DNA of 64,000 bases from positions 2,108,001 to 2,172,000 of the forward strand of contig JAYWIR010000015.1 in assembly GCA_036172245.1 (NCBI GenBank). Direction: 5' to 3'. Positions 22,801 to 62,501 of this stretch are shown piece by piece. The position numbers and the translations under genes were made by a program. This DNA comes from Raillietiella orientalis (taxonomy: Eukaryota). Each line of letters opens with the position of its first letter. The stretch's first letter is position 1. The notes under the pieces are model-generated. The model had not been told where the DNA came from. It saw nothing but the letters and a program-made list of their open reading frames with translations, and searched no databases.

Positions 22801-24289
22801 GTCGGCATAGATCCCGGTGGTGGTAGCAAACATTCTGGTGAATCCCGGCGATCTGGTGTGAAGGATGGACGCGTGTGAGCAGCCTCTGGGCGTGATTCAG
22901 TTGATCCGGGATCTCCGGAGAAATCCTAGAAGCTGCAAATACGAAACACTCAGAGCCGATTCTTATGTAGAGATTTTGCATGTGTATAGGTCATAGTGCA
23001 TAGGGTAATGGCGCATAGGAAATGTAGGTCCTCAAACCCGCGACTCTGTAGAGTCCATTTCGAAACTGGGTCGATTCCGCGACGCTTCCCAATCGTCACG
23101 CGGAATTCATGCAAACAGGGAGCAGCAAGGCGGAAAGTGTAGTTCGCGTCCTTGCGGCCCCATTACGTAGAGGAATAGGAGAATTAGAGAAGGAGAGACG
23201 AATAGGAGGATTTCGCGCAACCCAACACGGGACCCACGCTGACCGGAGGACCTCCACGTATTCTCGTTCAGTGAAGGCATCACCCACAGTACAAAGAATT
23301 ACGACCGAAGGTCAACAGAGGATGCCGAAAACACTGGAAAGGTGACGCAGAGATCACATTCGCAACGACAGAAGACATCCGCGATTCCGTCAGAATCGCT
23401 CGTTTCATTAAATTAAAGCCTGCTCTAAATAAATAATTTAGGAGGGGGAGAGGGTGAAGGTTGAAAAGGTTGAACCCAGAAAATTTGGGGGGAGTCTCTA
23501 TGCCCATGCGGCAAAAGTTGGACCGCTGCACTTCCTGTTGTACGCAGAAGGGAGAGCATTTACGAAACACAGATGCACAGCTGGGACTCCAGAGACGGAA
23601 GTTGGATGTCGGAAGGTAGCCATCGCCGGAAGCGCGATAGCCATCTGTCACACAAAGAGACAGATTGCTCCGGCACGCTTGGAACCTGCGAACCTGGTTT
23701 CCCTCTCGTTCTTGCGATACTTTCCGCACCGGGTCGAAGCCCCGAAGGGTGCGACGTCTCCGCGAGTGAACGTGCAAACACTGCCCGCTTTTTCGCTGAT
23801 CTCCGTGAGGATGCGCGTCCACCAGATCGCCGCTCATCCGTCTTCGGAAGAGCGAGTGAGGAGTGCAGAGAACCTGACGCATCGTGATCTCAGTGTTGCA
23901 CTGAGGGAGCACAGGATGTGAATCCCGAAGAACTTTTCTTTTCTTCCTTTTTTTCCCTTCTCGGAGGATTTCAGTGAAGGAGGATGCACGAAGAAGGTCA
24001 AAAGCGACGCAGGACATGTCGGAGGATGTGCGCCATAGGGTGCAGTGCTGATGCAAACCGAGCGGTAAACAAACGACGCCCTTCTGTGGAGGAAATTGCG
24101 GATCTCCATTGATCGGGGCAGGAATCAGCACCCTACGGTCTCCGCGAGAAGTGGCACGGAGTCGACCCCTAGAAGATCCGAAATGTCGGGAGAGTCGCGC
24201 GTCGGCCCAAGCTGATCGGTTCAGGGACACCGACACACCTGAATCGAAGTTGCATAAACTGAAGAAGTCTTGAGATGTCGACGGAGATG
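19892..24289 (-). mobile_element. Degenerate L1/Tx1-like element directly downstream of truncated U6 (EN, RT start, thumb, CCHC, 3' UTR; internal deletion/insertion near 21600-22260)
   Basis: EN-like GSKRAGAICLF and LCFVNALP (23900-23280); LPTNKDPLGG resembles LP.NK.PG.DG (about 22480); AELFGKLIVHL resembles AL..K...RL; HWGIPYNARR...TNCCRFREWESQLPHLLVDC is a zf-RVT/CCHC motif (about 20590-20470). Confidence 0.65.
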
Positions 24290-24373
24290 TTTGCATGCCA
24301 TCCTTGCGCAGGGGCCATGCTAATCTTCTCTGTGTCGTTCCAATTTTAGTATATGTACAGCCGAAGTGTGTAC
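24290..24373 (-). ncRNA. U6: U6 snRNA, 3'-truncated (nt 1-84; probable pseudogene or interrupted gene)
   Basis: Minus strand GTACACACTTCGGCTGTAC-ATATACTAAAATTGGAACGACACAGAGAAGATTAGCATGGCCCCTGCGCAAGGATGGCATGCAAA contains the 5' stem-loop, ACAGAGA box, AGC triad and ISL. The canonical 3' part (TTCGTGAAGCGTTCCA..TTTT) does not follow. Confidence 0.95.
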
Positions 24374-26258: not shown

Positions 26259-27629
26259 GAACAGCGCCGCGGCAAACAGTGGCAGAGAGGGCATCTGCAG
26301 ACGAAGGAACCACGAGCAAGAAGCTTTTTGAAACGCTGAGCATTTGAAGCACTCCTTGAACAACCCGCGGCAATAAAATTAGAAGTTTTCTCATCAGAGA
26401 AACCAGCAGACAATAGTGGTAGAAAGCTGAAAGCAGAATTAGAAAGATTTTCTTGCTGTGGATGGCATCGAGAAGACTTCTCCCTTCTGCTGATGGACAC
26501 CGCACTTGAGAGCTAACTTTAAGAAAAAATAGATCTCTTTGAACATGCGCTCACTTGAAATTTGCTCTCTCATCGTAGCCATGTTTCACCTTGGAATCAG
26601 AGGCTGATATTTGAATATTTGGCGCTTTCTGAAATTTAGCTGCTTGAGTCTTCCGACTATCTCGTGATTTTGTGCTCCTCACTTTGTTTCGTGCACTGAA
26701 TTTTGTAATCTCCTGGCCTTCGCCCCCTTTGGTGACCTTCCGTTCTCGTGAGCACACACCAATTGCTTGCCAAGCATGATGCCTTTTCCTCCTTTGAAAA
26801 GAATTCTGGCGAGTTTTTCAGGTATTCGTTATTTTTGCCCCCTCATCGTCGTCCTGCTGGTGATGAAACTTCCAACATCACTTTATTACCATTAAGAACC
26901 GGCTTGTATCCCCTCTTGGCCACTAAGCTTCTCAGCCTTTGATTCTACTGTCCTGTTTCAAATTCCTGAGCATGCGAAAGCCAAGTGCCAGTGGAGCTGG
27001 CTAGGTCTAGCACTGCCGGCGAAACGAAAGCGAAAGCGAAAGTGAAAGCGCGCGTGGCACGACTGCAGCGTCCGTTCTTCTCGGCTAGCCTGCGAGCAGA
27101 TTGTTTCGAACTCCTCACCCAAGGTTTCTGCCATTTATGCGCTTCTGGCCAACACCTCCAGACTGAGCTTTTCATTGCTCCGCTCAGTTCAAGTTGGATT
27201 GATGAGGTATCTCGTTCCATCTCATGGATGCTGCACAGGCCCATGCTCATTTACGAGAAAAGATTCGGGTGCGTTGCACCGACGAGGTACGCTCGAGCAG
27301 CAAGGTAGATCAGACTCTTCCACTCTCGAACCAAAATTCTTAGCCTTTCCATAACAGTAATGTGTCCATGGTAACCAAGGAAGGGTAGGGTCCAGCAGCA
27401 GAAAAGAGAAGCCTTTTCGATGCCATCCAAGGCAAGAAAATCTTTCTTATTCTGCTTACAGCTTTCTACCACTATTTTCTGCTTGTTTCTTTGATGAGAA
27501 AACTTCTAATTTTATTGCCGCGGGTTGTTCAAGGAGTGCTTCAAACGCTCAGCGTTTCAAAAAGCTTCTTGCTCGTGGCTCCTTCGTCTGCACATGCCCT
27601 CTCTGCTACTGCTTGCCTCGGTACTGTTC
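26259..27629. repeat. 240-bp inverted duplication (26259-26498 vs 27390-27629)
   Basis: Long near-identical reverse-complement match including TGAAGCACTCCTTGAACAACCCGCGGCAATAAAATTAGAAGTTTTCTCATCA. Confidence 0.95.
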
Positions 27630-39692: not shown

Positions 39693-42600
39693 TTAGTGTT
39701 TAAGATAAACTGCTGTGTTTAACCGAATCCAACATTCAATTTTTTCCAAACTAGGTATGTTCAAGTGCATGAGGAATTGCTTTCTGCTGGCATTAGTGAA
39801 CACTGGAATTGGCACAGTCTTTTCATGGAGTTCAGTGTGTTTATCATGCCAGCATAGACAACAAGACTCGAGAGGTTGATTTTTAGGGCTTGTTCTAGTA
39901 CTTCTAATCAGATAACTGTTTTTGGTGGCTGCTCCTTCCAAAATTAAACCTGTTATCTTTATAAAAATGGTACTTAATTCCACTGGCTGATCATTATGCC
40001 AGGTCTGCAGCATCAGAGAATCAACAGGGATCTCCAATCGCCTGAAAAGCTTAAATGCATTGCAGAAGAAATATTGAAATTTACTTTGCAGTGTAATGTC
40101 TGAAAGCCTGTAGAAAAGCACCAGCATCAAATGGTACAGCCAAATTAATATCCTGTTGAAACAGCAATCCTTGTTGCATCAATGCTTGCCACTGATGCAA
40201 CTGAATAGTTTTTTTTGCTATAGTTTGTATATATTCCAAAATATTGGTAGGTCCTTCCCAAATATCATGCCATGTGGAAGGTATCTGAAAACACTGCATC
40301 GAAAGGATTAGTTTGAAATTCTTACTTGTTGTTCTATAAGCATTCTATATGTACTGGAAATATCTTGTAGCTGAATGACTTGATTCTGCAACATTGTGAT
40401 TAATCCAAACAAATTTTCATCAATAGCTTGAATAAGAAGCTTGGACTTGCAGAGCTCTGATGTAATGAAAGAAGTAATTGGATCCAAATACAAATCTGAT
40501 TCCGTATACGAAAACAGTAGGGGCTTTGTTTCCTTTTCAAGTAAAAGTTAGAGGAACTATGATTGCTAAATTTACCACTTTAATTTTCTCCCAAAAACTA
40601 AAGAGAGGAGACAGTTTTGTCAATATCAGTGTTTGATTTTTCAGATCTCCAATTAAACTGATATTCAATTTTTGAAGTTTAGTTACAAAAGTATTACTCT
40701 GTGGGTGAATATTTTCTGGTAAGTGAAGCATTTCTGGTGAATCCATCTCAGGTAAAGCTCGCACAAAATCCAGATATTTGCTAAGCTCATTAGATGAAGG
40801 TAAAGCATGGCCTTGAATTGAAAAGTCATTTTCTATGCAGAATATTTTTTTCACATAAGCTGACAACAAATATTTTAAGGTTTTTCTGTCAAAATGTGTT
40901 TCCATTTTCGATCCATATACAAAATCCAACAAAAGACCTTGTAAATATTCAACTCTTTGCTTTCTTTTAGAGAAAACGAGTTCCAAGCAAGCAACTGCGA
41001 TTCGTAGATCAGATGCCCCAAGCTCATACAATCGTGTCCAACCCCAAGGTACATAACGTAAACGTCCTTTGAGGATGGCATGTAGCAAGGACAAAACAAA
41101 TACACTTTGTGCACTGGCTTTGTGTTTTGATGTATTTTTTGTTAAAGATAGAAGTGTGGTGCACAAATTATCCTTGATGCTTTCAGCATGCTAGTTACAC
41201 AATGCCTATTGAAATGCACAAAACAAGTTGCCTTACCTGAATAACGATTTTATATGAATTTTGTACCAAAACATGATCCAGTCGCTCTGTGAATTCAGTG
41301 CTCAACCATAGGCGAAACTTCTTGTGTAATTCCAATGTGTACAGCTCTTTCATCAAATGTGGAAGCCATCCTGGGCTTAAATGCAAATTTTTAAGTAACA
41401 GCCACTTTCCAGTCTCAGCACAGTGATACAGAGCATTGAGAGCAGTATCAGTTTGCCCTTGTCCAAGTGCTACATCTACCAAATTTTCGGGTCCAATTAA
41501 CTTGCGAGACAATTCTCGAATTTCTTGAGAAAAATCCACATTTTGAGGTAAAATCAACAGAATAGGTTCCTGAGGTACAAACTCATCAGAAAGTAATTCC
41601 AGATTCAATATCGGTAGTTCTTCTTTAATGCCTAGAATTTCTCAAAGTTGACAGTCTTTGGACAAAGTTTTTCATTATTACCTAAAACTGAAAATGTGAA
41701 GTTTCCAACTGCATGGGATAACCTGTCAGGATTCAGAATTTGAATAATCAGAACTTTTTGAAACAAGGAAATTTTCGTCAAAATTTTCTTAGGGATATGA
41801 TTTTCTGCATATACTGAAGAAGCGAATTCCTTCCACAACAAAGCATCATTCAATTCCATTTTCTGATAGAGATCCAGATGAGCATTCTACAACGGCAGAT
41901 TCAGACAATTTTCACTACTGGAATATTCATTAAAAAAAACTACCTTGAGAGCAATCACTGCATATTTTCGTTTGGAAGATACCCATGAAGGGCATACATA
42001 TCCGTCATCATCTTTGTCTTGAACATTGTTCAGCATTTCTATGAAGAAATCCCATTCCTGTTTAAAAAATTGTATTTAAATTTCTCGAGAATTCGATAAC
42101 TTTGAGCTCTTGGCCAAGCTCATTCACCTTGGCACAAATTAGATCTGGTCGCATCTCATACGTGAGAAACATGGCGAACATCAAACGATCACATTCTTGC
42201 ATTGCCTGACATACATATCTGTAAGTCGTTGAAATCAATTCCTGTTTTAGACTTTTTACATATACATCAACATCATTTTGATTCTGTAACCAAAGTAGTG
42301 GATTAGAATGAATCATTAGAATATAGAAATTAAGCACATCAGTTCATTGTAAAATAACAGACTGCTTTCAAACCTAAAATGATTTTCACACCTTTGCTGA
42401 TGTTCCTTTTATAGTACGCCGAAAAAGACGCTTGAAAGCTTCTAAGGAAAAGCTATACAGAGGATGTATTGTAGACAACTTCAATATAGCAAAGTAAAGT
42501 ATGCTTCCTGACTCTGCAACAATATGATAAATTTCTCGTTGCTTTGTGATACTATCTTGCAGAACAATGGACTCTTTCAGAGACTGTTCAATGGTTTCAC

Positions 42601-45600
42601 TATTTTTCTTTGCATCTTGCAACACAGAAATCAGTTCCTGTAGAAAAATGTTAGTGGTAGTCAGTAAGAAATTTACTCTCACTTGGTTTTCCAATAAGGA
42701 GATGGGGCTATTAACTAATTTGTCCAAAATTAAGTCTTCCAATTGAATTAATTTAAGTTTGAGATCTTCTCCAGTTTTTGAAAGAGTGAGGTACTTTTCC
42801 TCTAATTCAGGTTTTTCAACTTCGAGAACAAGTGATAGTAACTAAATAATAAGTGATGATACAAAATACGATAAAAAAATGGGAAAACTGGATGAAACTT
42901 GCTATGCATATTTGAAGTGAAATTCAAAATAATGGCAGACATTTCTGCTTACTCCAATCCTGTATCTAATTCGCAAAAACTAACAGAGAATTCTAGGTTC
43001 AGCAAATGCAAATATCTCCAATACCAGGATTGAATTCAAATTAAAGAAAAATTATTACATTCCAAATGCTGAACTTGGAAATGTGCTGATAAATTGAAGG
43101 TATTCAAGCATGCAACTGTGAAAATTAATGCAACCATGACAATACATTAAAACATTAATCATGTATACCACACTAGTGAAGAGAACCTTAAGCTTACCTG
43201 ATTCTTTAATCCTTCAACTGAAATATTGAAATTAACAAAAGTCAAGAATGAATCGATTTCGAAAGAGATCTGTAAATTGGGATTGCGTGTTGCCAGAATT
43301 AATGCGAAATTGGGATTGTAGTCAATCACTTTGTCTCCCAAAACAAGCTTTTGCATACGTCCATTGTGGATCAGCTCCCACCTAAACAAACTTCCCCAAA
43401 ACGGGTGGAGAGCTTCAGCATCATCGAGCATAATAATTTTTCCGGTCCTAACAGCTACTTCTAATTTCAAACCAATGTTTTTGTCCGTACAGCTCAAGAC
43501 TTCTATATTTTTGGAAGCATAGTGAGCTCTGATCCATGATATGGCTTGTCCGGATGGATCGATCATCAGAGGAAAAAACATAATCTATGGGCACAAATGA
43601 GACAGTATAACAGTATAGTTACTAATCCAACAATTTGAAACCACCACAAACTTATACTCACCTTTGATGGTAAATCAATAAGCTGAAAGCAATGGATGCA
43701 TTAAACATGATTGCAATTTAGGGACATACTTGCAGAATAACTGCCATATTTTCAATGAAACGAGTATCGGAAGGTAATCTTTCCATTTTCAAAGAAAGCT
43801 GTTCACTCTCTGTTTGCAGAAATCTTCTTAAATCAAAGACTTTCAAATTTAATATATCCATCCATTTATGCATCACATCCATTCTAGTGCTTTCTGTTTC
43901 ATTGCATAAAAAAGAAATGAAAGCAGCAGCTAAAACAGTCTCAGCTGCTGCTTTCTCCATTTTCTCATCTATTAGGATAATTTCTTCTTTCCATCGTTGA
44001 TATTCAAGTTGAAGTTGTATTAAGAGATTTTCTGCACGTACAATTCGATCACGCACTTGACGTAGTTTGAATTTTATTTCAGTTACTTCATCATTCTGTT
44101 TGGACTGCTTTGATTTTAATTCAAGTAATAATTTGTCCACACTTTCCAGTCCAACATTCAAATGCTGCATTTTCATTTGGGCTTCATGTAAATTTCTGGA
44201 TTTAACATGAAACTTCAATATACAATACAACATTTGTTATTACCCTAAAAGTTCATTTTGTTCTTGTTCCAAAGGGCGAACTTTTTGCAAAACTTTGCTA
44301 AATTTTACATTAGCTTGAACCCATGCTGCTAAGGGCGCAGCAGCAACAGAGGCACGTTTAGCATTAATAGGATCAAACGAATTCGCTCTCAATTTCAGCA
44401 AGGTCTCCACACTTTGCAAACTCTGTGGTTTTATATGACGAGGATCGAAATTTCTGAAAATCCAAAACTAAAACTTAAAGATCCAGGATTCGAGTCTTGG
44501 GAATACTTGATTTCTTCTTTTACTCCTCTTTTGGCTAAAAAATTTTTCATGCTATTCCAAGAAGTATCATAAGTTCCCATGAGTCTAAGAACTCCTTCTA
44601 ATATATCTCGGATAGTGTCAGGTGGTGCACGCAAAGATCTAATTTCTGATAAACTCTCAGATTTAATGCTTTCAACAGCTTCACGGGCTTCTTGGATTTC
44701 TGGCTCTATCAATGCCAATTCATTATCCACTTTTTGTTTTCTAAACATTTGCAATGTATCAAGAAAACATTGATTGCTGATTACCTTTTCTTCAACAAAA
44801 TTTCTTTTTCTTTAGCATCTTCTGCCAAGTCATTCATTTCGTCCTTGTGAATGCTGGCACCTTTTAAAGTATCTGCAATCTCCTTAAATGTAACTTCAGT
44901 TTCTTCCTTTTTCTTTTTTAACGTTCTTTCATCTTCATTTGCTTCTAATTTAAGTTTCGTAACCAAATCTTGAGCTTCCGTTAATTTTATTATGCCGCTC
45001 TGGTTTTAATGTAGTATCTGAGCTACAAGTACCGACAATTACTTGCATAAAGCTACGACGACTTCTCAGTTTCCTAATGTACTGATCAAACAATGTTCTA
45101 CACAACTTTAAAAAATTCACAAAACGCCGCGGCGTGGAAATCTGAAAGCTTGTATCCAATGTTAACAAGAACTCTTTTATAGAATCCGAGAGCATTAAAG
45201 GTTCTTCATCTATAATGGTAGTATCCACATGACACGTTCTGAAAAACATAATTAAATAAAGAAATTAAAGAATCACTCTACCTTTTTAACAGCCGTGAAA
45301 CAATCGTCGATCGTGAACTTTCGTTCCAAGAATTTATATGAATAATATCCATATATTTGTACAGGTTTACAAACCATCCTCGATTAGAGTAAGTATGCAA
45401 ATCTTGACTGTCGAACAACAAAACCAGGTGCAAATTTTTGCGCACTCCTATCACAAATCACAGCACTCCTTGATGACGGATTCATACTCACTTGAAATAA
45501 AGTAGGAATACATGTCACCTCGAAATCCGTCTTTCTGAGCTGACTGGCGAAGAGAAGTGAGTAGAGAATCCAGCTCATCGGAGGTATAAAGTCCTGGAGT

Positions 45601-48600
45601 TTCGCCAGAGCATATTAAACTATCGATTAAAGTTAAAAAACTTTCGTCAGATATTTGAAAATCCTCTATTACAAGAACTACAGTTTCTCCATTTGTAGAC
45701 ACCCGATGTATGATCTAAAATGTATATTTATTAAAATAGATAAATCGTGAATGCATTTAGGAATACCACTTAGTTAATCACAATAATCAAAATAATACAA
45801 ATGATATTTGCTTTTGACTTTCATGCTTTCATATGGTAAATGCATTTTTGTACAGCTCATCGAGAGATATTAGGTTTTTGTTTATACATTCCACAAAAAT
45901 ATCTCTTTGAAGAACTTTTTTTAATTCTTGAAATTCCAGCATTAGGAAAAAGATGGATCAAATTGAGCAGTCATGAAAGAATTTTCAAAATACCAACCAT
46001 TGTTTACCATTACCACAACCTGTAAATTCATCAGGTATAAAAACTGTGCAACACAAATCACAGCTAGTAACAGCATAGAAAGGGACAAACAAAAAACTTG
46101 TAAGCATAAGCAGAATTAAAGCAGATAGACTCGCTATTTACAAGAAAACAATAAGTTTAACAGCATGAACACTGAACGGTACGACATGAAAACAGAACAT
46201 TATCAAAATTTCTCCAGAAAAATAAATTCCATGAAATAAAAGAAACTAATAGAAGTATCACATATCACATGCCTAATCTGTGAGAAAAAAATGAAAATGA
46301 TTTTCACATCAACATCAAGCTTATTCAATGTTTTGAAATTTTGTTCCTAAATACATTACAAGATCATGGAAAACAATTAGATTCCCAGTCAAGACCCATT
46401 ACTTTACATACCTGAAATATCAAATAAATAATTCAGAAAATATCAAAGATTTTGCATTAGTAATATACAGTATTTCATTTACATTCAATTCACCTTTCAT
46501 CACTATGCACTTTTCGTTTTTCTAATGAGACAGTCACTATTAATAGAAACAAAAGAATTCAGTAAAACATTCAAAGTAAGCTTTTTTTTTTACTTTAAAG
46601 CTGATTTTGTGTTCCAAAATCAGCTTTAAAGTAACCAAATCTTGATCACATAATCAAACATGTAAGGACATGATTCACTTATGCCAGAGAGTAGAGTTAT
46701 AGAGTAGTTCAAACACTGATCATTTGCAGATTGCATTTTATTGGTTAACTTCGTATATCAAACAACTCACTGGATTACGGGCACAAGTTGGGGCAATACT
46801 GGGTTTAAATTTAATTTTAGAGAATTCATCTTAATATAAATTAACAAGAGAACAGTGGCATTCAATGTTTTCAAGGTAATGAGTAATTACCCTGGAAGCA
46901 CTACAGATGCTGATAATGAAAAGAAAATAAATGATGCAGGAAAATGGAAAAATAAACATAAAAAGTATACAAATCAAATTGTAACTTAATAATTGAAATG
47001 AACCAAATGCATTAAATGCATGACAGAACAAATTCCATAAAACTGAACTTGATATCTAGAATGAGCTAATTTAACTTCAGTTTGTCAAAAAGCACCTAAC
47101 TTGTGTTTCTCACTTTAACTAAATTTCTCACATTAAAGGCAATGGTAATGTGGAGAGAACAGAAATAATTAACAAAAATATGCAATTTGACTAAAATAGC
47201 TGCATGTGAAAAAACATGGCACAAATTGCACAAATGATGAAATAATTTGTAATTTGTTGTTTTGAAGCAATAAGGTTGTTAATTATCTCTCAGGTTTTAG
47301 TTGTTGGGAACAGGGTACAAATGCGGCATAAGAAAGAAATTTTCGTGTATGGAAAGAAAAAGCATTCATGCAAGTGGGAAATTGAAGCTTGAAATGTTCT
47401 CTACAGCTGTAAGTAAAAGTTAGAGAAATAATAACACAAAATAAACATAAATAAAAATTTAGATAAATACTTTGATAAAAGGAACAATAAAATACAATAG
47501 AGACACAGTGAGTTTGTAAAGCAATCATACTTTAAACCCATAGGATAAATATAAAATGCTGCTAAATTTGCTGACGCTGCAAACATTAATAAACTGTTAC
47601 TTCAATGTTGATACTTCAATATGATCTGTCAAAATGAACCAGAACGTGTAATACATGAACAATCAATTTCTATTACCAAAAAATAGCTTATACAAGAATT
47701 CAGAAAATAGCATACAGCAAGAAAAAGTTCTAATATGCACTTAGTTTCAGTGCCAATTTACTTGACATGCTATTAACATTAAAGAATAACCAGAATATCA
47801 CAATTAATCTTACATTTTTTAATTGCGTTTCCACATTTTTTCTGCTCAAGTTAAGATCGGTAACCAAGTTATGGAAAGCAAAATTATGAAGCACTGAAGC
47901 AATTCCAATTAGTGATTTCCTTCCTACTCCTGATGTTCCAATCATTAAAAGAGAGCTACCTGCATGACACAGAGTTCTGTCAACATGGCAAAAATACTCC
48001 ATTATCTCAGGAAAAATAATAAGATCCACAAAATAATGATCCTTTCCTAGTAGAATTGTATGATTCTTAAACAATTCAATCACAAAAAACGATGCATACC
48101 AAACTGGATAGCTCCCTTAAGTATATAGTTCTCCAAATTTTGCTTACTTATGCAATTAAAGTTACCATTATGATTGCTCACATAGTAGCAGTCTTGAACA
48201 GAACACCATGACTTGGAATCAAAGGCTTTTTTACCTGATAAAATTGAGGCCAAGGAATAATTAAAGTGGGTTTGCAAAATTTTGTCCAGAATGCATAAGA
48301 ACTTCGATTTGCTTTCGGTACTAGGAAGTGGATCTTTGAAAAGTCTGCAGCAGTCATAAGACCAGGCTACCAATATGCCATCCGGATAGGGTTTGTTCTC
48401 GGAAATTTGATACTGACAGAAACCAACTGCCCAGGACACTAGATTGCCAGGTGTGAATTTGAAAAAATATTCTCTGTGTTCTGCATTACACAGATTTTGA
48501 ACCTACAACAAAAACTGAGTTATATATCTTCATAAAAGAATGCCTACCTTTTCATAGAGTTCGACCATTGCAGAAGAAAAAGAAACAGATGCCTTTTCCA

Positions 48601-51600
48601 CCTCACAAGACATACTGAGGTGATATTTCACAAAAGCTTGGTTGGAAAGCAGGGCATGTTTACATATGCACAACAGGTCAGTAGAACTTATTTTTCTGAC
48701 AACGATATTAAAAATAAATAATCTAATTGCGTCATGCTTACTCTAAAGCATAAACACACAAAGATGAAGAAAAGCGTCTGCAAATGGGATAGCAGCCTAG
48801 TTCTGCATTTGGCACATATGTAAAAACAAATTGTACTCCTTGAACTTGCACCCATTCTAGATCATTATTATAAAAACCTGCATGATGAATTATCTGCAAA
48901 CTCAAACATATCACTTTTCCAAAGATATCACTTTTTACCTGCTGTAAAAAGTTAACCAGTTCACATGATCCCCATTTGTCAGGTTTGATATGATTTAAGT
49001 GGCTTACAACAATAATCACTCTTTCAGCAGTTTTTGGACGCAAAATCCAACCTTTAGAAGTGAAAACCATGGAACAAAGCTTTATATTAATCAGAAAACT
49101 TTACTAAATAAAAACAGAAGATAGAAACCTGCTGTAATTTCCATTGAAAATCTTTAGCCTGAGTTCCCACTCCACACTGAAAAATGACCATTTGCACAGA
49201 TCGAAGCTGATTAAATGAATATCTCAATATGGAACTGAAAATCACATAAATAATCTAATGATTACAGTAACTTGTTAAATGATTACATTTTCCCACAAGC
49301 TCGAGGTCCAACTAGGCAAAGATGAACCCATTTTTTTGATGTGAGCCAGCTGCGGATATATTTACAACATCTGTAACATTCATGTAAAAGACTGCTAGAA
49401 ACCAATCATGGTGCATACTTTTCCATAGCAGGTATACAAACAAATGGAATGGAGGAAGTACTTGAGAAGTTTTGGAAACTGATGCATGAATCTGATAATG
49501 TATCTTCATGTGAACTGTGAAAGCTACTATCAGGACACCAAGACTTTAACTAAAAGTGAATATCATGTTAAGAACATTAGTAGCATGCTGCATTACCTGA
49601 GCAGCTAAAGAATTACGTAATTCATTCTGAAGGTTACCACCGAGACCATGAATGATTTTAAATGAGAATTCTTGAGGTGAGCGCACATTTTCTAGGTGTG
49701 ATAAAGCTCCTAGGATCCAGCCAACTTTTGATACGTCTACTATAAACTGATTTTTTGTCCACACCCAATCCATAGCTTTAATTTGTTAAGTTGAGTTTGC
49801 AAAGTAAAGCTCACCTTTAGTAAATATGGAGCGAAATTTATTTTCCCAAAGAGTTTGAACATCTTCCTCCTGACGCTTTATCCATGATGCCAAAATACTG
49901 TCTATGTTGATGTCATCATCGCTAAATAATAAAAAATCAAAATCTAATTAGATTGTCTTAGTTATACTTAAAATATAATACTCCTAAACGACTTATTGTG
50001 GCAGGAGATGCCTTTGTAAGGTCAGAAGTTTCAAAAATAAAAGAAACATTTGAGCTAAATTGAAATCTCTCTCCAGTAGGAACCGTCATCGTATGATTGT
50101 CATCCAAAACTGAATTAAGGTTCTCAATCCATTCTGGATCAATGTCTCCATCGCAAATGATCCAGTAAAGAACATCTGCTAAATTAAAACAGTATTCTTG
50201 AAACAAAATTACCATCATCGCTATCCAAACTGCTTATTTCAGATATTATTTTACGAATAATGTGACCACGAAGAATTCCATCAACCCATTCATGTCCATC
50301 AAGGTTGAAATAGCCAAGAAGACACGAATGGCTCACAGCTTTAGGGTTCAATACAAAAATTTTTACTTGTTTTCCCAACCGAACCAATGTTCTTTGTAGT
50401 AATTTCCAAACAGTTGTTTTTCCTTGAACTTAGGTCAGTTACAAAAAAAAAATTTGTTTTACCTGAACTCGCTGGCCCAAGTAGAACAATACCCATTCTC
50501 TTTCCCAACTGGAGATGAAGCTCCAGTACCTTTTGTTTCTGAATACGCATGCGAAAAATGATCCTCTTTTTTAAAACAAAAAATTAATGACGATACACTC
50601 ACTTGATTTTCTTGATATGTTAAGCCTAACTCTTTCACTGCAGATTCTATTTCATTTTGAAGCATTTCAAATTCCATTTGTTCAAAGCTTATTCCTACAA
50701 AGACGTCTTGCAGCAGAGCTCTAAATTTGTATTTATCTGGAGAAGTCAATTTGGAAACAGTGCCTTGGTATAAAGCTTCCACCACAATTTCCATTTCGTT
50801 TATACTATCTCCATTCTGTTTATGAGAATGCAACATTTTTCCAGCAATTTGCAAAACTGCTTTCAATGCTCTTAATCCCCAATCATAATGGTATTGCACA
50901 CTGAGCAATTTTCTAAATAGAATAACTTGTATAAATTTGCATGAAATTAATTAACTTAGAATGAAATCTTAGGAAATATATTAATAATGGAGAAACTGAA
51001 TTCCTTGCCAGTCCCAGCAGTGTTCAAGAATCAACTCTGAACACTGTTTATGGAATATGAATACATGATTACCATGGAATTCCACAAATTGATAATTATC
51101 AAATGTTGATACCAAAAAACGAAATGATACAATATGCAAAACAAAAATAAAAACCCTTTCAAATAAAAAACAAATAATGGAAAGTTAAAAGTCTCAGATC
51201 ATACCATTAACTTGATATGGTGAAACATATTTGCAATCTGCTAACAGTTGAAACAATTGTATTCCTTATTACATTTAACTGGATATCTTAAAATATTTGT
51301 CTGGGATAAATTTAAATTTTCAATCTGTGAAAAATATTTTTACAAATGTTTTGTAGAATGAAATTTCATATGTTTTTGTGTTTAAGCAAGAAGGAAAACA
51401 AAAAAGATGATCAAGTTAAGGCTCATTAATGCAAAGACTTTCGTCTACAAGACTAATAAAAGAAATGGTAAACAATTCCATCATTCAATACAACCTATCA
51501 AGAGTTTTTTAGCAAGCTTTTTTCAAAGTATAAGGAGAATACTCTGAAAAAAACTTGTTTTACTTTAGCCAAATGTAGAAAAGTTTTCTGAATCACTACA

Positions 51601-54600
51601 ACCTCATAAGTTAATTACAATAACCACATGCTTCGTTTGTTTTCCCGTCTATTTTGGAGAAAAGTTTTAATCAAAAAGTTTGTACATCAAAACATATCAA
51701 AAACACGATAGAAATCCAAATAGCTCTGAAAGAAATACATTGTTGACTTGAGGTTTGTTTCATTCAAAGAATCATTTCATTCTTTAATCAATTACATTAC
51801 TTTCTTGATTTTTGTTTTCAGGCAATTTTTATATCCAATATCAATATTGGTGAAGAATGAATTAAAATGTTAAGATACTTTAAGTATTTGCAAAGTAGTC
51901 TAGACCAACAGTCAATATTTGAAACTGGCATTTTCTCTATTCAAATAGGAACTGAAACGTTAAAAAAATCCACTTAGATGGAATACCAATAATAAAAATT
52001 GCACAAACTATTACGATAATTTTGCTAAATTTTACGAGTTAATTGGTAATAAACGAACCTGGCTGAATCGAAAACACAAACTGTTTTTCTTGCAAGAACC
52101 GTTGCAGTTTGAAATCCATCTGCGAGTAAAAGAATCTCGCAAATATCATTTATATTTACATAAAAAATGGCTATTGAGCAGAACAATTGTTGCACATTTC
52201 CTGGTAATCTTTGACGACCTTGATAATGCTGATCTGCAGGATTCATGGTAACAAATATCCCTGCATTGTGATTTACGTTTATCTGAATCAAATTCAGAAA
52301 AATAAAGAAACGAGAAAATGGATTTTACCATTTGGTTTTGTAACAGGACTTGATTTTTATGAAATAAAAGCGCCTCCTGAATTGATTGAATTTGTACAGT
52401 AATAACAGACATTACTCCTTCTTCCAATCTGTTAAACTCATCAAAACACCCCCAGGCTCCACACTTAATGATTCCTATGAATATACGACTGATAGCAGTA
52501 GCATCCAAGCCTTCATCACAATTAAACACAAGTACATGACGGCCCAAAATTCTTCCAAGTTCCTTGACAGTTTCTGTCTTTCCTGTGCCTGCTGGTCCAT
52601 GCAAACTACCACCCATTCCAAAAAACATGGCTTGAGCAAGAGACAAAAAACAGTTATCCATTAAAGATGTATGCACTAGATGAGATGAACAGGCCTGATA
52701 TTCATAACTATACAAAAATTCAGCATCGACTGTCCTTATGACAACTAACTTATTGTCATTCACATAAAACCGCAATTGCTTCTGCCATATCCACTCATCA
52801 ATTTGATTAACGTGGTCAGCGCATAAAGACTCAACTATGCGAATACGATGAACAAGATCTAATATCAAAGCCTTCAATTTGAGAATGAAACTGATACTCG
52901 AATCCAAATTTCGTGCATGTAAATTGGTAAGTCTATCAAGCTGTTCTTTAAGTTCTTTCAAAAACTCTGTTAATAAGTTATTTTGAATGCTTGTTTCACA
53001 TTTCTGTGTGAACCACACTGCCTCTGACAAAGTTAGTATCTGAAGAGGGAATTGTTGCAAGCTCTGTTCATCAGTTGTACTTAGCTCTAAACATTCAAGA
53101 AACATGATCTGTAACGTTTGTTGCACTTCATTGGCAAAACGTGACAACCACACCTAAAAACAGGTGAAAAATTATTGAAAAAGAGAAATTACGGTATACT
53201 TCAGCATCTGGCTCCATTTTAACTGAACTTTTTAAGGGAAGCAATTCATCTTCCTCGGATCTGATACCAACAATATGTTGATGAAGAGGTTCTCTACCTA
53301 ATTCAATTTTACAAACACCAGGAAATATCTTTTTCAAATGAGTTTGTATGATTTCCGGTTGAGTAGACTGACCAAGAATTTCAAGCAAATCGTCATCACT
53401 TATGAAATAAAATCTTGGAAATAGCTGTCTCTTATTCTGATGAAAAAAGAGTGCATCACTCTGCATTTTTGAATACCTACTTCCAGAAAGACGTGCAGAC
53501 GTTTCTGACTATGGTCCAGTTGAAACTGTAAAGATAATAATAGATTTCGAGCATCTGGAATATCTAATAATGATAACACATTGTGGGTAGTATACAAAGA
53601 CTCCAACAAATAGTTCAACTCCGAGGTACACCGTAAAAATGATTCATTGATATCTTTTTCTGGAATCAGATGACATCCGAAAACTGGTTCTAAATAACGC
53701 CATCTTGAGAAATAAGAAAATGTTTCAATACATAATATGTTTAAGGATAGATCAGATTGACTCACTTTCTTTGAATTTCATTGAGAAGATGTAAATATTC
53801 ATCCAGTTGAGCAAGCCTGATTTCCCATGCTTTGACCATATCATTAAGCTGACTTGAAAAAGCACAATTACATACACAAAACAACTGCACTTCTAGATCT
53901 CCAATCTGAAGAAAATCAGGTCTATCAAAACAAATCTGATCATGCTATGACTAGTTACTTTGTTAAACAGGCTTTTCCAATCTGTAACTAAATATACTAC
54001 ATGGCCATTAAATTTTGTATATTCTTCCATCCGAATAGAATTATCTGCTGCCCATCTCTCAATTACTGCGAGCACTCTTCGGATTTCTGCTTCATTTTGT
54101 GAAAGTCTATTTAATTCCTTCAAGAAAGATAATGTGAAGTCAAAAATTTTGAGATGACAATTTCTCCATTCTGGAGATGATGATATAATAATTGAATTCA
54201 GTAAAAAGGTGTGCGTTCCAAATAAAATTAAATACAAATCGGAATATTTTAGAATCTATAAATGAGACTTTTCTACTCGAATCATCAGTAAAACCACGGA
54301 TTTAAGAAAAAACAAACTCCAGAATAGTTTTGTGACAAAGTGTAGGGGAAAAAAAAAAACCTGTATATGCAAGCAAGATATAAATAGCACAGAATACAAT
54401 CAAATGTTCATTCATAAAGCTTAAATACATATGAAGCCCTAAACATTTTTTAAGAGAGCAAGGTCTCAAAAACGAAAGTTGTACTGACATGATTTGATGC
54501 GTTTTATCTGCAAAACAATGCAAAACTAAATTGTGGAAAAAGGGAAAATACAGGTCCAAATTCTAGCAATAACACTCTAAGTAGATGGAAACAAATGTTC

Positions 54601-57600
54601 TACATTAATAAGGTACTCACTTTAAGTTGTTCTTGGTGAAGTCTGATTTCTGAAGACACTAGCAGAATATCGGAAAAAGAAAGACTAGCAACCTCAGTAT
54701 TTGAAGGAATTCCAATTAAACTAAAACATTCTGACCAATGGAGTTCCGCAAATGTCTCACCTTTCAAAAGGGGTAACAAAGGTAGGATCATCTAAAGGCA
54801 AAAGCATTAATTCATGTCAAAAAGTACAAACTGTTGCTTTACATGCCTTATAGTTTTGAATGTCTTCTAAGATATATTTGCTAACAGGCAGTGATTCCTT
54901 TAATGGCATTATTTTGTCAGACCAATCCAAAAGGAATTTTTCAAAGGTATTAATTCGTTTTCTAAATGACAACCAATCAGTCTGTCCCAATTTCTGCAGA
55001 TCTGGAAAATGCCACTTATATGTGGTAACATAATTTATTGTTTCGAGAGTTATTTATTCTCAAATGAACAAAATTTGAGTAGGAAGATGTAACGCTATCC
55101 CTAAAAGGATAACATGGATCCTCACGATAGCACAGACATTCTACATCAAAATGGATATAACTGATCTATCTATACATTCTATCTCTCATAAGATAAGCTC
55201 TTAAATAAAGTTCACAAATCTTCAGCATATCAACTTATTACAATGAATGTCTTATAGTGTAAACACATTAAGCATTCAGATTTGTAACATAAAATTAATT
55301 ACTACTAATAATGATGGCACCAAACAGAGCATGAAGCATTCAGAGCACCAATTATGAAAATTCCCACAAAAAATATCCTTATGATCAGATTCCATCTTAG
55401 GAACAAAACTAATTCGTAGCAGTACAAATCGCAAAAGTACCTGAACTGAAATCGCTATAGAGTTTCCAGTTTTCATGCGTGTTTTCTACATTAGTATTCA
55501 TTTCTGCTAGCTCCACATGAAGAGGTTCCATTCCAATATTTTCCAGTTTATGACTACAATGCGACAAACTATCATTCAAAGACTTTACTAATCTTATAAA
55601 TGCCTGAGATCATTTTTTGTCTGAAGAATAGCCTGCCAATCGATATACAGAAGTTGAATAGTAGAAAAACTTTTGAATAACTCTTCTTTGCTACATTCCG
55701 AAGTTAAGGTCCTTGCCATGATTTCCCAATTATTTCTGAATGTCTCCACAGCTGATTCAAATTTACACACGTCTGCAGTAACTGTTCTTTTGACTGTGTC
55801 CATCTAATAATGAAACATTATCTTTCAAATGCATTAAGCTGCAATACTTGTTCTCTAAAGATTCGTTTGAGCTTTTCATGATCTTGATTATGACTGTTCC
55901 AGATTCTTTCAATCCTTTCAAGGTATTCAGTATGTGTTCCATCGTAATTTTCTAAAATGGAATATTTCTCTTTTGTTTCTTCAACAGTCATTGCAAACTG
56001 TTGTGCAATATAATATTATGGCATTCAAAAGATGACAGAAAACCTTTTTTTCCTCCTTCAGCAATATCTGATAGAACGCTGTTAACTGTTCAAACTCATC
56101 TTTACATTTCAGATTTTCATTTAGAAAATCTGAGTAATGAGCAACAAACTGCTCAATCTCACTAACTGCGTTTACGATGGATTTAGATAAGGTTGATATG
56201 AGCAAATCCCAATAATATGCATACAGGCGTTGCAACTCGGCATGTAACAGAGAAAATGATACACAGAAACATGCAACTTGTTGATTTGAACTTCAAGAAA
56301 AAAAATAAGAAAATGTATTATTACTAACTTGAAAATTAACTTTTTACCTTGGAATTTTCGAAATTTCATGTGCAAAAAATGTGGCTGCCTTGAAATTTAT
56401 TTTCCAATCATCAGGTTTTTGCAAGTGAATTTCTGCAAGATACTGGAGATCAACAGCACCTAAAGCCGCCAAACCAACGAACTTGTTTTTGAAATTCATC
56501 AAAACTGGAAAGAAGTTTTCAACAGTTTCATAAACAGATGAAAGCAACTTCTTGTTTCTGAACAGAACACATTTAGAGAATGTACATTCAACTGCCCCTT
56601 ACTTGTCCAATACATTAGTAAATAATCTAACTTGAGATCTGTCAGTAAATCCCTTGCAATTTATGGGAATCATAATCAGTTTTCTTACTTCTTGATAGCA
56701 AAGAAATTTCACTTCTTCTATAGGTGGATAAAATTGTAAGGTGCCATGCCTATTAATATTAAATAATAATTACAACAGTTTATGTAATCTTACCTTAAAA
56801 CCAAAGATACATCTAATACAGGGAAATATCTTTCTATGTGCCTTAATCCGATCTGATATTGCCAATCAAGAACTTTGGATAACTGCACATTCCAATGACT
56901 TTTCCAAGCTTGTTGATCACAGTACTCATTTTGTTCCAATTCAGTCATTAGCTCACGAATACGCTGAATCTCAATTTTCCACTTTTCAAAGTGTTGAAAC
57001 AAGTCCAAATCAAGCAAAGAGGCCATTCTCGCACAAATCTGATGATGATAATGCATTAACTTGTTGTTATCTATTGCTAAACGTTCAGCAGCTTTTTCGA
57101 GTTCAAGAATACATTGTTCTACACTCTCTAAATTCATCCAAGTAATTCTTGTCTGCTCATCAATGAGATGAGAAAAAACTTTGGATGATTTCAACATCAT
57201 TGGACGCTGTGAAGGTATCATCCTTTGACCAATGGTATTATGAAAAACAACAATCTAATAAGAATACTCTATAAAGTAATTATATGACCAAGTCTACATT
57301 ATTTACTCTCTCAAGAGTTCTAGCATGACTTGAAAATTTTTTGGCTTCTTCAGCTACAGAAGTGATTTGCATGGGAACTTGGAATCCCAAGGACGACAAC
57401 TGTCTTACATCTTGAATAAGAACTGCTAATTGGCTGTCATAATTAATGCTTATGCGTTGGTCGTGTTTAAAGGAGATCATAGGTTTGTCCAAAAGTAAAC
57501 TAAACAGCTGTCTAAGAAAAAACAATTCAATACCTTCATACCCAAAATTTTTCGTTTTAATTTTGTTGATAATATAAGCAACCCAAGATTGGAAATAAAT

Positions 57601-60600
57601 TTGTCTAGAGTTTTGAATATGTTTCAACAAGTCTTGCATTGTTTCATTCACTGAAGCAAACTTGTTCTCATCGCTGAAGCCAAGAGTTAGTATTTTGCTC
57701 AGGTATTCCATCTATGAAAAGATTAATATATAAGTTAAGACAATAAGAAATGATCATGTGAAAATATGACCACTGAGAAAAACAATTCAGTGCAAAAACA
57801 TTTTCTCAAATTGAGTAATAGAACTTTTTCAATATTTCCATTATTCAGTTGGATCAGATCATTTGCGAATTGTCTTCCCAAGAGGTTTTACGACTAAACA
57901 ACAACATTACTTTGTACACAACCAGTGCAACTGCTTACTTCCTTTTCACCAATTAAACTATTCATGAAAAAAATTGGTAAGTTCCGATTTTTAGGTAATA
58001 AGGACAAGGTAATCTAATGACAAAAACTAAACTGAAGGAAAAAACTTGAAGAAAATAAAAATACAGAAATAGCACAAAATAAAGAAAGAAATGAGACAGC
58101 TTCAAATCTTTAGATATTTTTCCCGAATATTTTATTTTGCATCACATGTGTAGAATAATCTGAGATTTAGACCAGAGAAAACAAGAATTCACTTCATGAA
58201 ATAATAATCTGAAAACTAAGCTCAAGACTAATCAAAAATTAGTGTTCCCTAGATCCCAGTTTGATTAATGCACATCTTATCTAGATCTCATTTATTTTAT
58301 TTTTTTTTATGATTCTTGAACTTCACAGGTGAAAGCCTTAAAAAATAAGAAAATATTGTCTTGCATAAGCTTAATGACTAATTTTGTCTTAGGGACAGGA
58401 AAACACTGTATTATTGGTAATAGTTACCAAGATTTCTAAAGCATCAAATTTTCCCAAATTTTCCATTATAACATTCTTAATTGCTGAGACTGTAAATACC
58501 AAAATATTGGAAACGAAAACTAAAAGTTCCTTAATGAAACTTTTAGTGTTTATTTCCTTGAAACAAAAATTCATCTTGGGAAAAAATGAAATTTTAATTG
58601 TTTCTTACTCTGAACAAAATGTTACAGTGTAGGAATGAAGAAAAATAAACTCAGAATTTAAGAAAACTATGAACAATTGTTATGATTTCTTGCCTTTAAA
58701 AAATGATACACAAAAAGTACGAGATCCTCGTGAATACCAAATCTTTAGAAATACATAAACATAACTGAAAAGAGCTTTCTTTCAAATTTTAACAACCAGA
58801 TGACTGCAGTAAATGTACACTAAGTAGCAAGGAGTTTTCAGCAAAAAATACCATCATATGTCAAGATTCAAAATTCTTCAAAGGCTTTCTAAAGGTGCTA
58901 TTTAATTATAAGAGACTATCACTTAATTGCAATTAAGTGTAAAAACAAAAGTAATAAAGAAACCAAACCTTTCTGATCTAATTTCATTATCTACCCCACT
59001 TCTAACTCTACTGTTGCAAAAACCCTGCATTAAAGACTCAGGGATGAAGTTGAATTAAGATAAAAACAATGAAAGAAAAAAAAAGTCAAGGTACCAACAC
59101 AAATTTTCAAATTGGCAAAACATGAAAATCAACTGGTTGAGAAATTGAAAAACACAAATTGATCAAACTAGCTCAAGGAACAAGTAGATTAGACTATTCA
59201 GAGAAAGAATGTATTGTCTCATGTACAATCAAATACAGCAATGTAGTGTAAGGATAGATAATCCCATAGAGTGAAAAGACCAAAAGCTTGGATTAAGATT
59301 ATTTAAAACGTTTTAAACATAAATTATTTTAAACATGAAAAAAAAATTGGGGGTTAAAAATGAAGATGTAAACATTCTTCAGCATGATTGGTTCTGAAGC
59401 ATCAACCTCTTTGGAAATCAGAAAACGCCATTACAACCATCAATCACAAAAATTAAAAAAATGATAGCCTTCATAAATTTATACAATAGTGACAAAGAAC
59501 ACTTAATGCATATTGAGTCAGCAGTAACTGTTTTCACTATACCAAATTCAAGGTCCAATATTGTCAATGTAATTGGAATTAAAAAATGAATGATGAACTG
59601 AACGACTAACCATTTTGCATTGGGTCTGAAGTACTACTTTAAAATAATCAAACTGAATGTAACCATGGCAGAAATAACTCATGATAATACATTGAAATAG
59701 CCATGCATCGGAATAATGGGATGCATAAAGGTTCAGCTCCACAAAAAATTCACTAAGTCTTATATTTTTCAATTCTTTAAATATTTAGCTTTTTTCTACA
59801 ATCTCCAAAATCAAAAACCGTTTGATTAAAGTTGGATAAGCAACTGTTTACTTCAAACATTTTTACTTCAAACTTCAGTTTCACAACCTGTTCTGTTTAA
59901 AGCAAACTCCCGATGAATTCTTCAAAATATATTCAATATCATGATTGTAAAAGCTTATATATTTTGAATAACCGAATTAAATTAATATAAATATTGAGTT
60001 GACATCACAAATAAAAGAAAAAAAAAACAAGCACTATAAAAGGAAATAGTTGATGGAAACAAAAAATACTTTTCAGAAATTCTCCTGCTGTCATTCTAAA
60101 CTGAAGATGCTCAAAGAGATCCTGGACTCCAAAATCAATCTCAAGTTTGCATGCACATTAATTGAATGTAAATGAAAGTCTGTAGGTCATTCAATTCAAA
60201 AATCCATCCATTTCTGGATGAACAATTCAAAACAAAAAAAAATTCGAATGTTTAACCAAATGCAAGTCAATGAAAAAATGAACAGAAAAAACAAATTTCA
60301 TGAAATTGCACGTATACCCTAATTCTAATTTGCTCCAAATGCATGATGGAACTGACAGTGAGTTCTACAGCATTCTTAAGATTTTCTTGTTGTAGTTCTT
60401 CCCTAGCATCACATATGTAGGAAACAATGTGATCAAGAAAAGCATCTCTTTCAGGTGCCAAGTGAGACTTGATTCCATCTAACAGAGTTACATCTGCAAA
60501 TTTGCAAAACTGATCTGCAATCTAAAAAACAATCAAAAACTAAATCCTCAGCAAAAAACTGACCTTGAAAATGTTTTCTTTACTGTTGGTCAGTAGTTGT

Positions 60601-62501
60601 TGCAGAACACTGCACAACAATGGAAATGATGATTGTAACATCAAATGAAATTGTTGGACAGCAGCAGTCCATAAAGGTTCCAAGTATGAAGAGCACAATA
60701 AAAAATTTGAACCTTTAAATGGATTAAACAGCTGATTTAATTTCAGACGTTCATGCTCCTCACTAGGGACTAACTGAAGCACTTGTTGATGAATTCTGCG
60801 TAATGCTAAAATCTGTAGAAAATTGTGTTTAACTTATGAATATTCAGTAGATGCACCTTATATGCTGATGCCAGTGTCATATATAGTAAAGTGCAAAATA
60901 ACGCTAATCTAACGTAGTTCCCTTAGATTAGGAGCATGCTCAAGTATATTAGTGCAGCCTCATCATAGTTGGTGACATAACAAGACATGTGCTAATGTAC
61001 CTGTTTATAACGCATACACATCTGTTCAATCTGATGTGGTTTATAAGCACCACCCTGCCATTTATAAGCTTCACAAGCTGGCCAAAATACTGAAGTTAGT
61101 TCACAACACACATCCTGCCAATGCTGACACACATTCATCATCCTGCATAACTTTTCTTGTACATGATTGTACACATCACTCCAAATAGAAAGCCCCTCTA
61201 ATTCATGATAAATTCTGCTGGCCAGAGTAGTACCTTTAAAAAAAAAAATTCATAGCACCAAAGGCACTGAAGTTCTTATTCACGAGCTTTGAAATCACTT
61301 TATTGAATACAGTACACATCATGCTCATTCTTATACCAAAAAGATCCAAAAGAATTTGCATCCTTTTTTGTGAGTATAATGGTGAAGATAATTTCCAAAG
61401 TTTATCCAATATTTCTTGTGTACTGACAATCAATTGTTCTAGGTCCATCCCCGAATTACACTGATAAGCAGCCACTAAAGGTTTCAGTAAAAACAATGAC
61501 TGCCTGGCATCTTCCTTGCTGCTTTCCTCTGATGTATGGCTTTCATATATACTCTCCAAATAATCAATTTCTTCCCTGAGACATATGAACTCTACAAAGC
61601 ATACTAACAATAATGCAGCAATTAATATTTAAATGATACCTTCATATTTTGTAGCATCAGCATTTGCTTTAATAATTTTCCTAAGACTATCTTCAAGTTG
61701 CTGAACCTGTAGCTGCATTTCTGGGCTTAAAATCTGACTCCACGGCCCATCCTATACCCAAAACAAACAATAAAGACGCAATATAAAGAAAGGATTTCCC
61801 ACAAATAAATATGTTTTATACCACCAACCTGCAACAATAATGGGCAATAAATTCTGTGCAACACACAATATAAAGTAGCAACTGGAGATCCGAACATAGA
61901 AGACACTAAAATATCATGGTGGATTCTATTTGGCTGAATAACCACTGCTTTATTTTTAAAAAAAATTAAAACTTTATCAACATTCCCGTCCATAAACAGC
62001 TACAAAGAAAAAACAATTAATTAAAACACAAATACATATCACTTTAATTATGTGTATGACAAAGATTTTGTGCAACTAAATTAGCTACAAAAAAATCAAC
62101 GAATAGAAAAAACTATAACCAATCTTTTCAGTGATGGGAAACTCAGATTTAAGAAGGTAAACCCTGACTACACTGCTTTCCAAATATCACGCATTTCCAA
62201 AGAACTGTATCGTATCTCTTTTTATTGCATGAACCATATCTTATCATATCTTATTTCATTTTAAGCAATCTTACCGTTATATCCAGTGTCAAATTCTTTG
62301 GGTTTTGCTCGTAATGTGCTACCAACGTTACGGCATCACTGGTATCCAAAAACTTCTCCAAATATGGATTAGATATCAAATTGGAAACGCACGGTTCATC
62401 GGGGAAAATGCAAAAATAATTGGCTAAAAGAAACACTCTTCACTACTTGACGTAATATACTTACCAATAGTGTGTATGATAAACTGCTTTCTATCATCCA
62501 T
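39693..62501 (-). CDS. DYNC2H1: Cytoplasmic dynein-2 heavy chain (IFT retrograde motor), multi-exon, about 55-60 introns
   Basis: Spliced N-terminus [16 protein letters not shown]...DKVLIFFK...[15 protein letters not shown] and tail motif [10 protein letters not shown] match dynein-2 HC. P-loops: AAA1 GPAGTGKT with [13 protein letters not shown]2 [11 protein letters not shown]3 GPRACGK, AAA4 GTSGVGRK. Also [33 protein letters not shown], stalk/[15 protein letters not shown]...[20 protein letters not shown] and [12 protein letters not shown] at 62499-62501, stop TAA at 39693-39695 after [12 protein letters not shown]. Exons could be joined by eye with GT(GC)-AG introns. Confidence 0.95.
43662..43682 (-). 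CDS. 21-nt phase-0 microexon (LIDLPSK) of the dynein-2 heavy chain
   Basis: Minus strand reads ...CATTGCTTTCAG|CTTATTGATTTACCATCAAAG|GTGAGT. It lies between the exon ending VILQ (donor at 43729) and the exon starting [11 protein letters not shown] (acceptor at 43585), with flanking introns of 47 and 77 nt. Confidence 0.75.
46590..46634. repeat. Perfect 20-bp-stem hairpin in a large dynein intron
   Basis: TTACTTTAAAGCTGATTTTG-TGTTC-CAAAATCAGCTTTAAAGTAA. Confidence 0.9.

Follow-up and report, generated by a model that had tools for sequence, protein, structure and literature searches.

In the dynein-2 heavy-chain gene of Raillietiella orientalis, a 21-nt segment lies in the intron that directly follows the codons for VILQ, at the start of the AAA5 region. 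The strength of its splice sites and the inserts seen in homologous proteins make it very likely that this segment is a real exon, and that it is orthologous to an old and widespread cassette exon that was probably present in the bilaterian ancestor. Judging orthology from the position and phase of the intron, the length of the exon and part of its sequence, we estimate a probability of about 0.65 that it is a cassette microexon orthologous both to the microexon of vertebrate DYNC2H1 and to the inserts of molluscs, an annelid, crustaceans and insects.

The window, i.e. the whole stretch of DNA that was analysed, is 64,000 nt long and comes from assembly GCA_036172245.1 (contig JAYWIR010000015.1, positions 2,108,001-2,172,000, forward strand). 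All positions given here are positions in the window.

The vertebrate exon is well described. In the account of Vig 2020 (PMC7708302) the human microexon is exon 64, has 21 bp and adds seven residues to AAA5, predominantly in the retina; a stop codon inside it, p.Ser3279*, causes non-syndromic retinal degeneration. Ciampi 2022 (PMC9303857) lists the same exon as VastDB HsaEX0021304. Its inclusion, its tissue specificity and its dependence on SRRM3/4 are shown in these articles (PMC7708302, PMC9303857). Further, the retinal microexon programme is traced in Ciampi 2022 to jawed vertebrates, and the DYNC2H1 exon is stated there not to be conserved in zebrafish. The evolutionary depth of the exon is not described in the literature that we searched: the work on DYNC2H1 and dynein-2 microexons gave no description of it outside vertebrates, and the literature search gave no paper describing seven-residue isoforms of invertebrate dynein-2.

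The dynein-2 gene and its surroundings

Dynein-2 is the motor that hauls cargo back down cilia (retrograde intraflagellar transport, IFT). By sequence comparison, the gene on the minus strand of the window is its heavy chain, an orthologue of DYNC2H1 / DHC1b / CHE-3 / btv.

39699..62436, minus strand: heavy-chain gene of dynein-2 (IFT dynein); the limits of the coding exons are approximate (tblastn and coding segments)

Residues 99-4360 of a damselfly dynein-2 (P0057, 4361 residues) are found in order by tblastn over window positions 61972-39699, and coding segments free of gaps extend from 62436 to 39699. The colinearity covers the full length of a heavy chain of dynein-2 (about 4300 residues), the AAA5 region included. 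When the two exons that flank the candidate microexon are compared with the PDB, dynein-2 chains are matched at E-values of 4e-21 and 1.7e-22 and dynein-1 at 3.6e-08 and 6.8e-17, while axonemal chains score far under dynein-2 for both exons. Of 20 matches that were looked up, 13 have a source name, and all 13 are named as cytoplasmic dynein 2 heavy chain, as cytoplasmic dynein heavy chain or simply as dynein heavy chain. An earlier reading of the sequence alone (the sequence-only reading) had assigned the gene to dynein-2, and this assignment is borne out both by PDB matches that are nearer to dynein-2 than to dynein-1 or axonemal chains and by the full-length colinearity.

The protein is divergent. 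Its identity to each dynein-2 in the comparison is about 35-40%, and the identity of the upstream exon to any protein of the 50%-cluster library is at most 38% among the best 150 of 263 HMMER matches. In a tree of 48 taxa and 2344 columns the window sequence is placed on a long branch within animals, beside a glass sponge and nematodes, a position that is probably the result of long-branch attraction. The identity to that glass sponge is not above the identity to others, and an assignment to a phylum was rejected. Judged from its sequence, the source is a fast-evolving metazoan.

The base composition shifts within the window: the G+C fraction is 0.45-0.61 in positions 1-34000 and 0.29-0.35 in the dynein-bearing part, 34000-64000. 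No protein-coding gene was recognised in the first 34 kb. In addition, two structural RNA matches, a ribosomal RNA fragment (all three in the G+C-rich part) and two repeats were recorded:

22127-22817, plus strand: large-subunit rRNA fragment, model positions 666-1454 of 3401
24265-24373, minus strand: U6 snRNA, full-length match, 83.4 bits
29375-29500, minus strand: U4 snRNA, match just over threshold, 47 bits
26259-26507 and 27381-27629: inverted repeat of 249 nt, 90% complementary, arms 873 nt apart
1784-1918 and 2629-2767: pair of direct repeats, about 847 nt apart

Anatomy of the VILQ junction

The region around the candidate exon is read on the minus strand as follows, in the direction of transcription:

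43730..44195, minus strand: upstream exon, which passes from the last part of the stalk region into AAA5 and ends in VILQ (translation; acceptor at 44196)
43683..43729, minus strand: intron A, 47 nt, canonical GT-AG, GTATGT...TGCTTTCAG (ends TTTCAG)
43662..43682, minus strand: candidate cassette microexon, 21 nt, phase 0 on both sides, seven residues, stop-free (translation, splice-site scores, homologue inserts)
43585..43661, minus strand: intron B, 77 nt, canonical GT-AG, GTGAGT...CCCATAG
43198..43584, minus strand: downstream exon, core of the AAA5 large domain, beginning just before the conserved ...IDPS strand (translation; donor GTAAGC at 43197)

The upstream exon has its 3' end at 43730, where GTT ATT CTG CAA encodes VILQ. 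It aligns to residues 2261-2415 of the human dynein-2 chain 4rh7_A (E 4e-21) and has a weak match to the Pfam stalk family PF12777. The downstream exon matches Pfam AAA_9 (PF12781) at its positions 27-151 with an E-value of 9.9e-31, and aligns to 4rh7_A 2419-2542 (E 1.7e-22). A branch-point-like site, TTAAT, is present in intron A, 19 nt ahead of the AG.

Inclusion of the 21 nt preserves the frame, and removal of all 145 nt (43729-43585) likewise does. In the human short form, 4rh7_A, VILQ occupies residues 2412-2415 and residue 4 of the downstream exon corresponds to 2419, so that the reading without the 21 nt is in exact colinearity with the canonical human protein.

When the minus strand was read again, the coordinates, the TTTCAG and GTGAGT sites, the frame and the TGC directly ahead of TTTCAG all came out as in the sequence-only reading, and the downstream exon translates from 43584 as it had been given there. 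The claim that the site is that of the vertebrate insert agrees with the phase-0 intron, which is found directly after VILQ and before the ...IDPS strand of AAA5. The heptamer IIGLKSW, which the sequence-only reading had given as the human insert after VILQ, is present directly after VILQ in mouse isoform X1 (= Isoform 2; P0398) and in the long forms of panda, cat and seal. Against the mouse sequence, the three identities that had been noted between it and the window insert, LIDLPSK, are found at positions 2, 4 and 6. In a 4314-residue long form the sixth residue of the insert is serine 3279, matching the human p.Ser3279*.

Splice-site strength and chance expectation

Splice-site weight matrices were built from 18 short introns of the gene with canonical ends, each recovered by at least one of three automatic runs and most by at least two. 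These introns were picked by hand because the three automatic mapping heuristics are noisy, and the site scores and decoy statistics below depend on this hand-picked set. The control introns have a median length of 45.5 nt (range 39-108).

The acceptor of the microexon scores 7.9 and its donor 10.0, to be compared with leave-one-out medians of about 4.6-5.1 for acceptors and 7.7-8.1 for donors. The acceptor is higher than all 18 leave-one-out acceptor scores (maximum 7.8), and both sites are at the top of the range of the gene. The 47 nt of intron A are a typical size for the short introns of this gene and, given the median of 45.5 nt, a split into 47 and 77 nt suits the gene better than a single intron of 145 nt.

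The 145-nt interval was shuffled 200,000 times, counting frame-preserving and stop-free segments of 3-30 nt with comparable sites. Such a pseudo-exon was obtained in 0.36% of the shuffles by strict and in 3.9% by lenient settings. Further, 13,473 nt of long introns and AT-rich flank were scanned on both strands (26.9 kb) for stop-free segments of 3-30 nt: no equally strong decoy was found, and three segments reach the rounded median thresholds (acceptor 4.0, donor 7.9).

Two stop-free segments with above-median site scores are located within long introns of the dynein gene on the minus strand, at about 51587 (24 nt) and at 46623 (30 nt). They could be small exons overlooked so far, or decoys.

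The seven-residue insert in other species

The upstream exon was used in a HMMER search, of which the best 150 of 263 matches were studied. The junction is spanned by 87 of these, and most of them are colinear with the skipped form. In five of the best 150 (tsetse, three Lepidoptera and one further contig), six or seven residues are added exactly at the junction. In 22 of the 26 exon-sized fragments examined a GTN codon follows directly after the equivalent of VILQ, which fits with an intron at this position in many species.

Named full-length proteins were collected from the best 120 of 335 and the best 120 of 521 word-index matches, with sister isoforms added from one cluster look-up. The tally took in 455 proteins; 342 of them are 400 residues or longer, and 282 of the 342 are anchored on both sides of the junction; proteins from Lepidoptera are not anchored by the pattern used in the tally. 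The number of extra residues at the junction is distributed as follows among the 282 anchored proteins:

0 extra residues: 196
+1: 13
+2: 5
+5: 2
+6: 2
+7: 62
+12: 1
+13: 1

The seven-residue insert is found in molluscs (oysters, Potamilus, Biomphalaria, Haliotis), an annelid (Owenia), crustaceans (crayfish, prawn, amphipod) and insects (cockroach, psyllids, tsetse). Among mammals it is carried by mouse, panda, cats, seal, camel, wallaby and echidna, and among other vertebrates by frogs, a shark, a sturgeon and many teleosts. The deep conservation proposed by the sequence-only reading has support from annotated isoforms of molluscs, an annelid, crustaceans, insects and vertebrates. Models without the insert include those of damselflies, beetles, ticks, nematodes, a sponge, chytrids and algae. 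That most homologues have no insert (196 of 282) speaks against the main reading, and it is weak evidence since microexons are often missed in annotation.

In nine invertebrates sister isoforms with and without the seven residues are annotated: Crassostrea virginica, Magallana gigas, Ostrea edulis, Biomphalaria glabrata, three Haliotis species, Periplaneta americana and Procambarus clarkii. Among fish the same is seen in Solea and Carassius.

The sequence of the insert is variable. Positions 3-5 of the window insert are identical to those of tsetse and to those of Haliotis asinina (counted identities), while crustacean inserts have little in common with it. Fish, shark and mollusc inserts have their first two residues in common. 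In general, a large hydrophobic residue is found almost without exception at position 1 and in most cases at position 4. A stretch of seven residues is too short for its sequence to prove homology.

A few models depart from this picture. In oysters (P0195, P0314, P0315) a second, alternative insert of six residues occurs at the junction, and one isoform of Ostrea edulis contains both (13 residues). One isoform of Haliotis rufescens (P0328) has a different insert of 12 residues. There seems to be more than one small alternative exon in the dynein-2 VILQ intron. Among cyprinids, models of Carassius and Garra (P0255, P0256, P0259) have the seven-residue insert and a Danionella model does not; the Carassius and Garra models contrast with the lack of conservation in zebrafish as stated in Ciampi 2022 (PMC9303857).

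Alternative explanations

The 21 nt might be a chance look-alike within a single intron of 145 nt that is never included in the mRNA. They are known here from genomic sequence alone, the skipped reading is the common form of the protein, and 3.9% of the lenient shuffles contain some frame-preserving pseudo-exon. However, the strict shuffles give 0.36%, the 26.9 kb of decoy sequence hold nothing equally strong, and a 145-nt intron would be three times as long as the median short intron of the gene. The segment is also exactly 21 nt long at the one intron where 62 proteins have seven extra residues, and three consecutive residues are identical to those common to the tsetse and abalone inserts. 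We therefore find a look-alike very improbable. A real exon may, on the other hand, be constitutive in the source organism, always spliced in and with no switch between isoforms. Strong sites and an ordinary 47-nt intron are as compatible with constitutive as with regulated splicing: the acceptor (7.9) and the donor (10.0) rank at the top of the leave-one-out scores, the length of the upstream intron is close to the median of 45.5 nt, and a genome with short introns favours efficient removal of both introns. In tsetse, psyllids and Lepidoptera, too, only models containing the insert were seen. We nevertheless consider constitutive inclusion rather unlikely, as both forms are annotated wherever several RefSeq isoforms per invertebrate species were available (nine species), and as the skipped form is in frame and colinear with 196 of 282 homologues.

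It is also conceivable that the exon is real and arose independently, the dynein-2 VILQ intron having gained short exons repeatedly, so that the match to vertebrates would be convergence. Torres-Mendez 2022 (PMC8797185) gives only four eMIC exons at positions common to fly and mouse (in spg, EndoB, unc-13 and unc-104), and convergence is favoured there for three of the four. The second insert of oysters, which falls in the same interval and is combined with the first in one Ostrea model (13 residues), and the different 12-residue insert of one Haliotis rufescens model would fit repeated gain. So would the strong differences between the inserts of crustaceans, insects and vertebrates, and the models of many lineages that have no insert. 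Against this, the size of the insert is sharply fixed, with seven residues in 62 of the 68 anchored proteins that have at least five extra. Position 1 is nearly always, and position 4 usually, large and hydrophobic; the first two residues are the same in fish, shark and mollusc inserts, and each of the three bilaterian superclades has members with the insert. An independent origin is in our view unlikely.

Possible role of the insert

Under the preferred reading, that of an orthologous cassette exon, inclusion would make the link between the last helix before AAA5, which ends in VILQ, and the first conserved strand of AAA5 (...IDPS) longer by seven residues. This is suggested by the positions of the Pfam AAA_9 match, the alignments to solved structures and the general AAA+ architecture. 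Skipping would give the form common to most dynein-2 proteins. The insert would be found where the module that carries the stalk meets AAA5, and it may tune how movements of the ring are passed to the microtubule-binding stalk. The result could be a variant of the motor for a subset of cilia, and in the source organism the exon would then be included in some cells only. By a 2024 review's account of Niekamp 2019, the exon is said to weaken microtubule binding. On transmission from ring to stalk, a similar suggestion is made in Ciampi 2022 (PMC9303857).

Regulation

The sequence-only reading had put forward a UGC motif upstream of the exon as an eMIC enhancer. The motif itself is present: a TGC is located at -9 to -7 from the acceptor AG of intron A, with two more TGC farther upstream; of these three, two fall within -22 to -3 of the acceptor, that at -9 to -7 being one of them. 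As an argument for an enhancer it is weak, and the upstream UGC is uninformative by itself, because in 5 of the 18 control introns, too, one or more TGC lie no farther than 20 nt from the acceptor.

According to Torres-Mendez 2022 (PMC8797185), the eMIC exons of the fly have a weak 3' splice-site region that needs the factor. Such a weak site is not seen in the window, where the acceptor score of 7.9 is above all 18 controls. The fly dynein-2 gene (btv) is absent from the main text of that article. One of the supplementary files has no entry under btv, CG15148 or beethoven, and the tables may use other identifiers.

Evolutionary significance

In its widest form the proposal would be that a single cassette exon from the bilaterian ancestor has persisted in the retrograde IFT motor for over half a billion years, that it marks the cilia of sensory cells in invertebrates, and that it is switched by eMIC (Srrm234/SRRM3/4) as in the human retina. 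We regard this as tentative and as possible rather than probable. If it were true, this would be the first ciliary exon common to the microexon programmes of arthropods, molluscs and mammals, and it would belong to a very small set of exons, ciliary or not, that these three have in common. Further, the origin of the "retinal" microexon programme would then be placed far below jawed vertebrates. The insert of the same length at the same site in molluscs, an annelid, crustaceans, insects and the metazoan studied here suggests an ancient, specialised isoform of the IFT motor, and one that is amenable to study in tractable invertebrates.

Comparison with known microexons

The nearest likeness among invertebrates is to the RefSeq isoforms of Haliotis asinina (X1/X2), Biomphalaria glabrata (X1/X2), Crassostrea virginica (X1/X4), Periplaneta americana (X1/X2) and Procambarus clarkii (X1/X2), which have an insert of the same size in the same place. 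Of these inserts it is that of Haliotis asinina to which the window is identical at positions 3-5, and the most similar insert overall is that of the tsetse model. These isoforms are predicted proteins from annotated genomes, known here as protein models alone.

With the microexons that fly and mouse share under eMIC control (SRRM3/4, fly Srrm234) the window exon has in common that it is very short and frame-preserving, that its position is shared across phyla and that a UGC is found near the 3' splice site. Its 3' splice site is not weak, in contrast to those of the fly eMIC exons in Torres-Mendez 2022 (PMC8797185).

The differences from the DYNC2H1 microexon of human and mouse are that the source is not a vertebrate, that the protein is only about 37% identical to theirs, and that the window introns are of 47 and 77 nt with splice sites that are strong by the standard of the gene itself. 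In other respects there is a close resemblance: the gene family is the same, the intron is the same one directly after VILQ, a UGC is again found near the acceptor, 3 of the 7 residues are identical to the mouse insert (positions 2, 4 and 6; counted identities), and in both cases 21 nt encode seven residues and preserve the frame.
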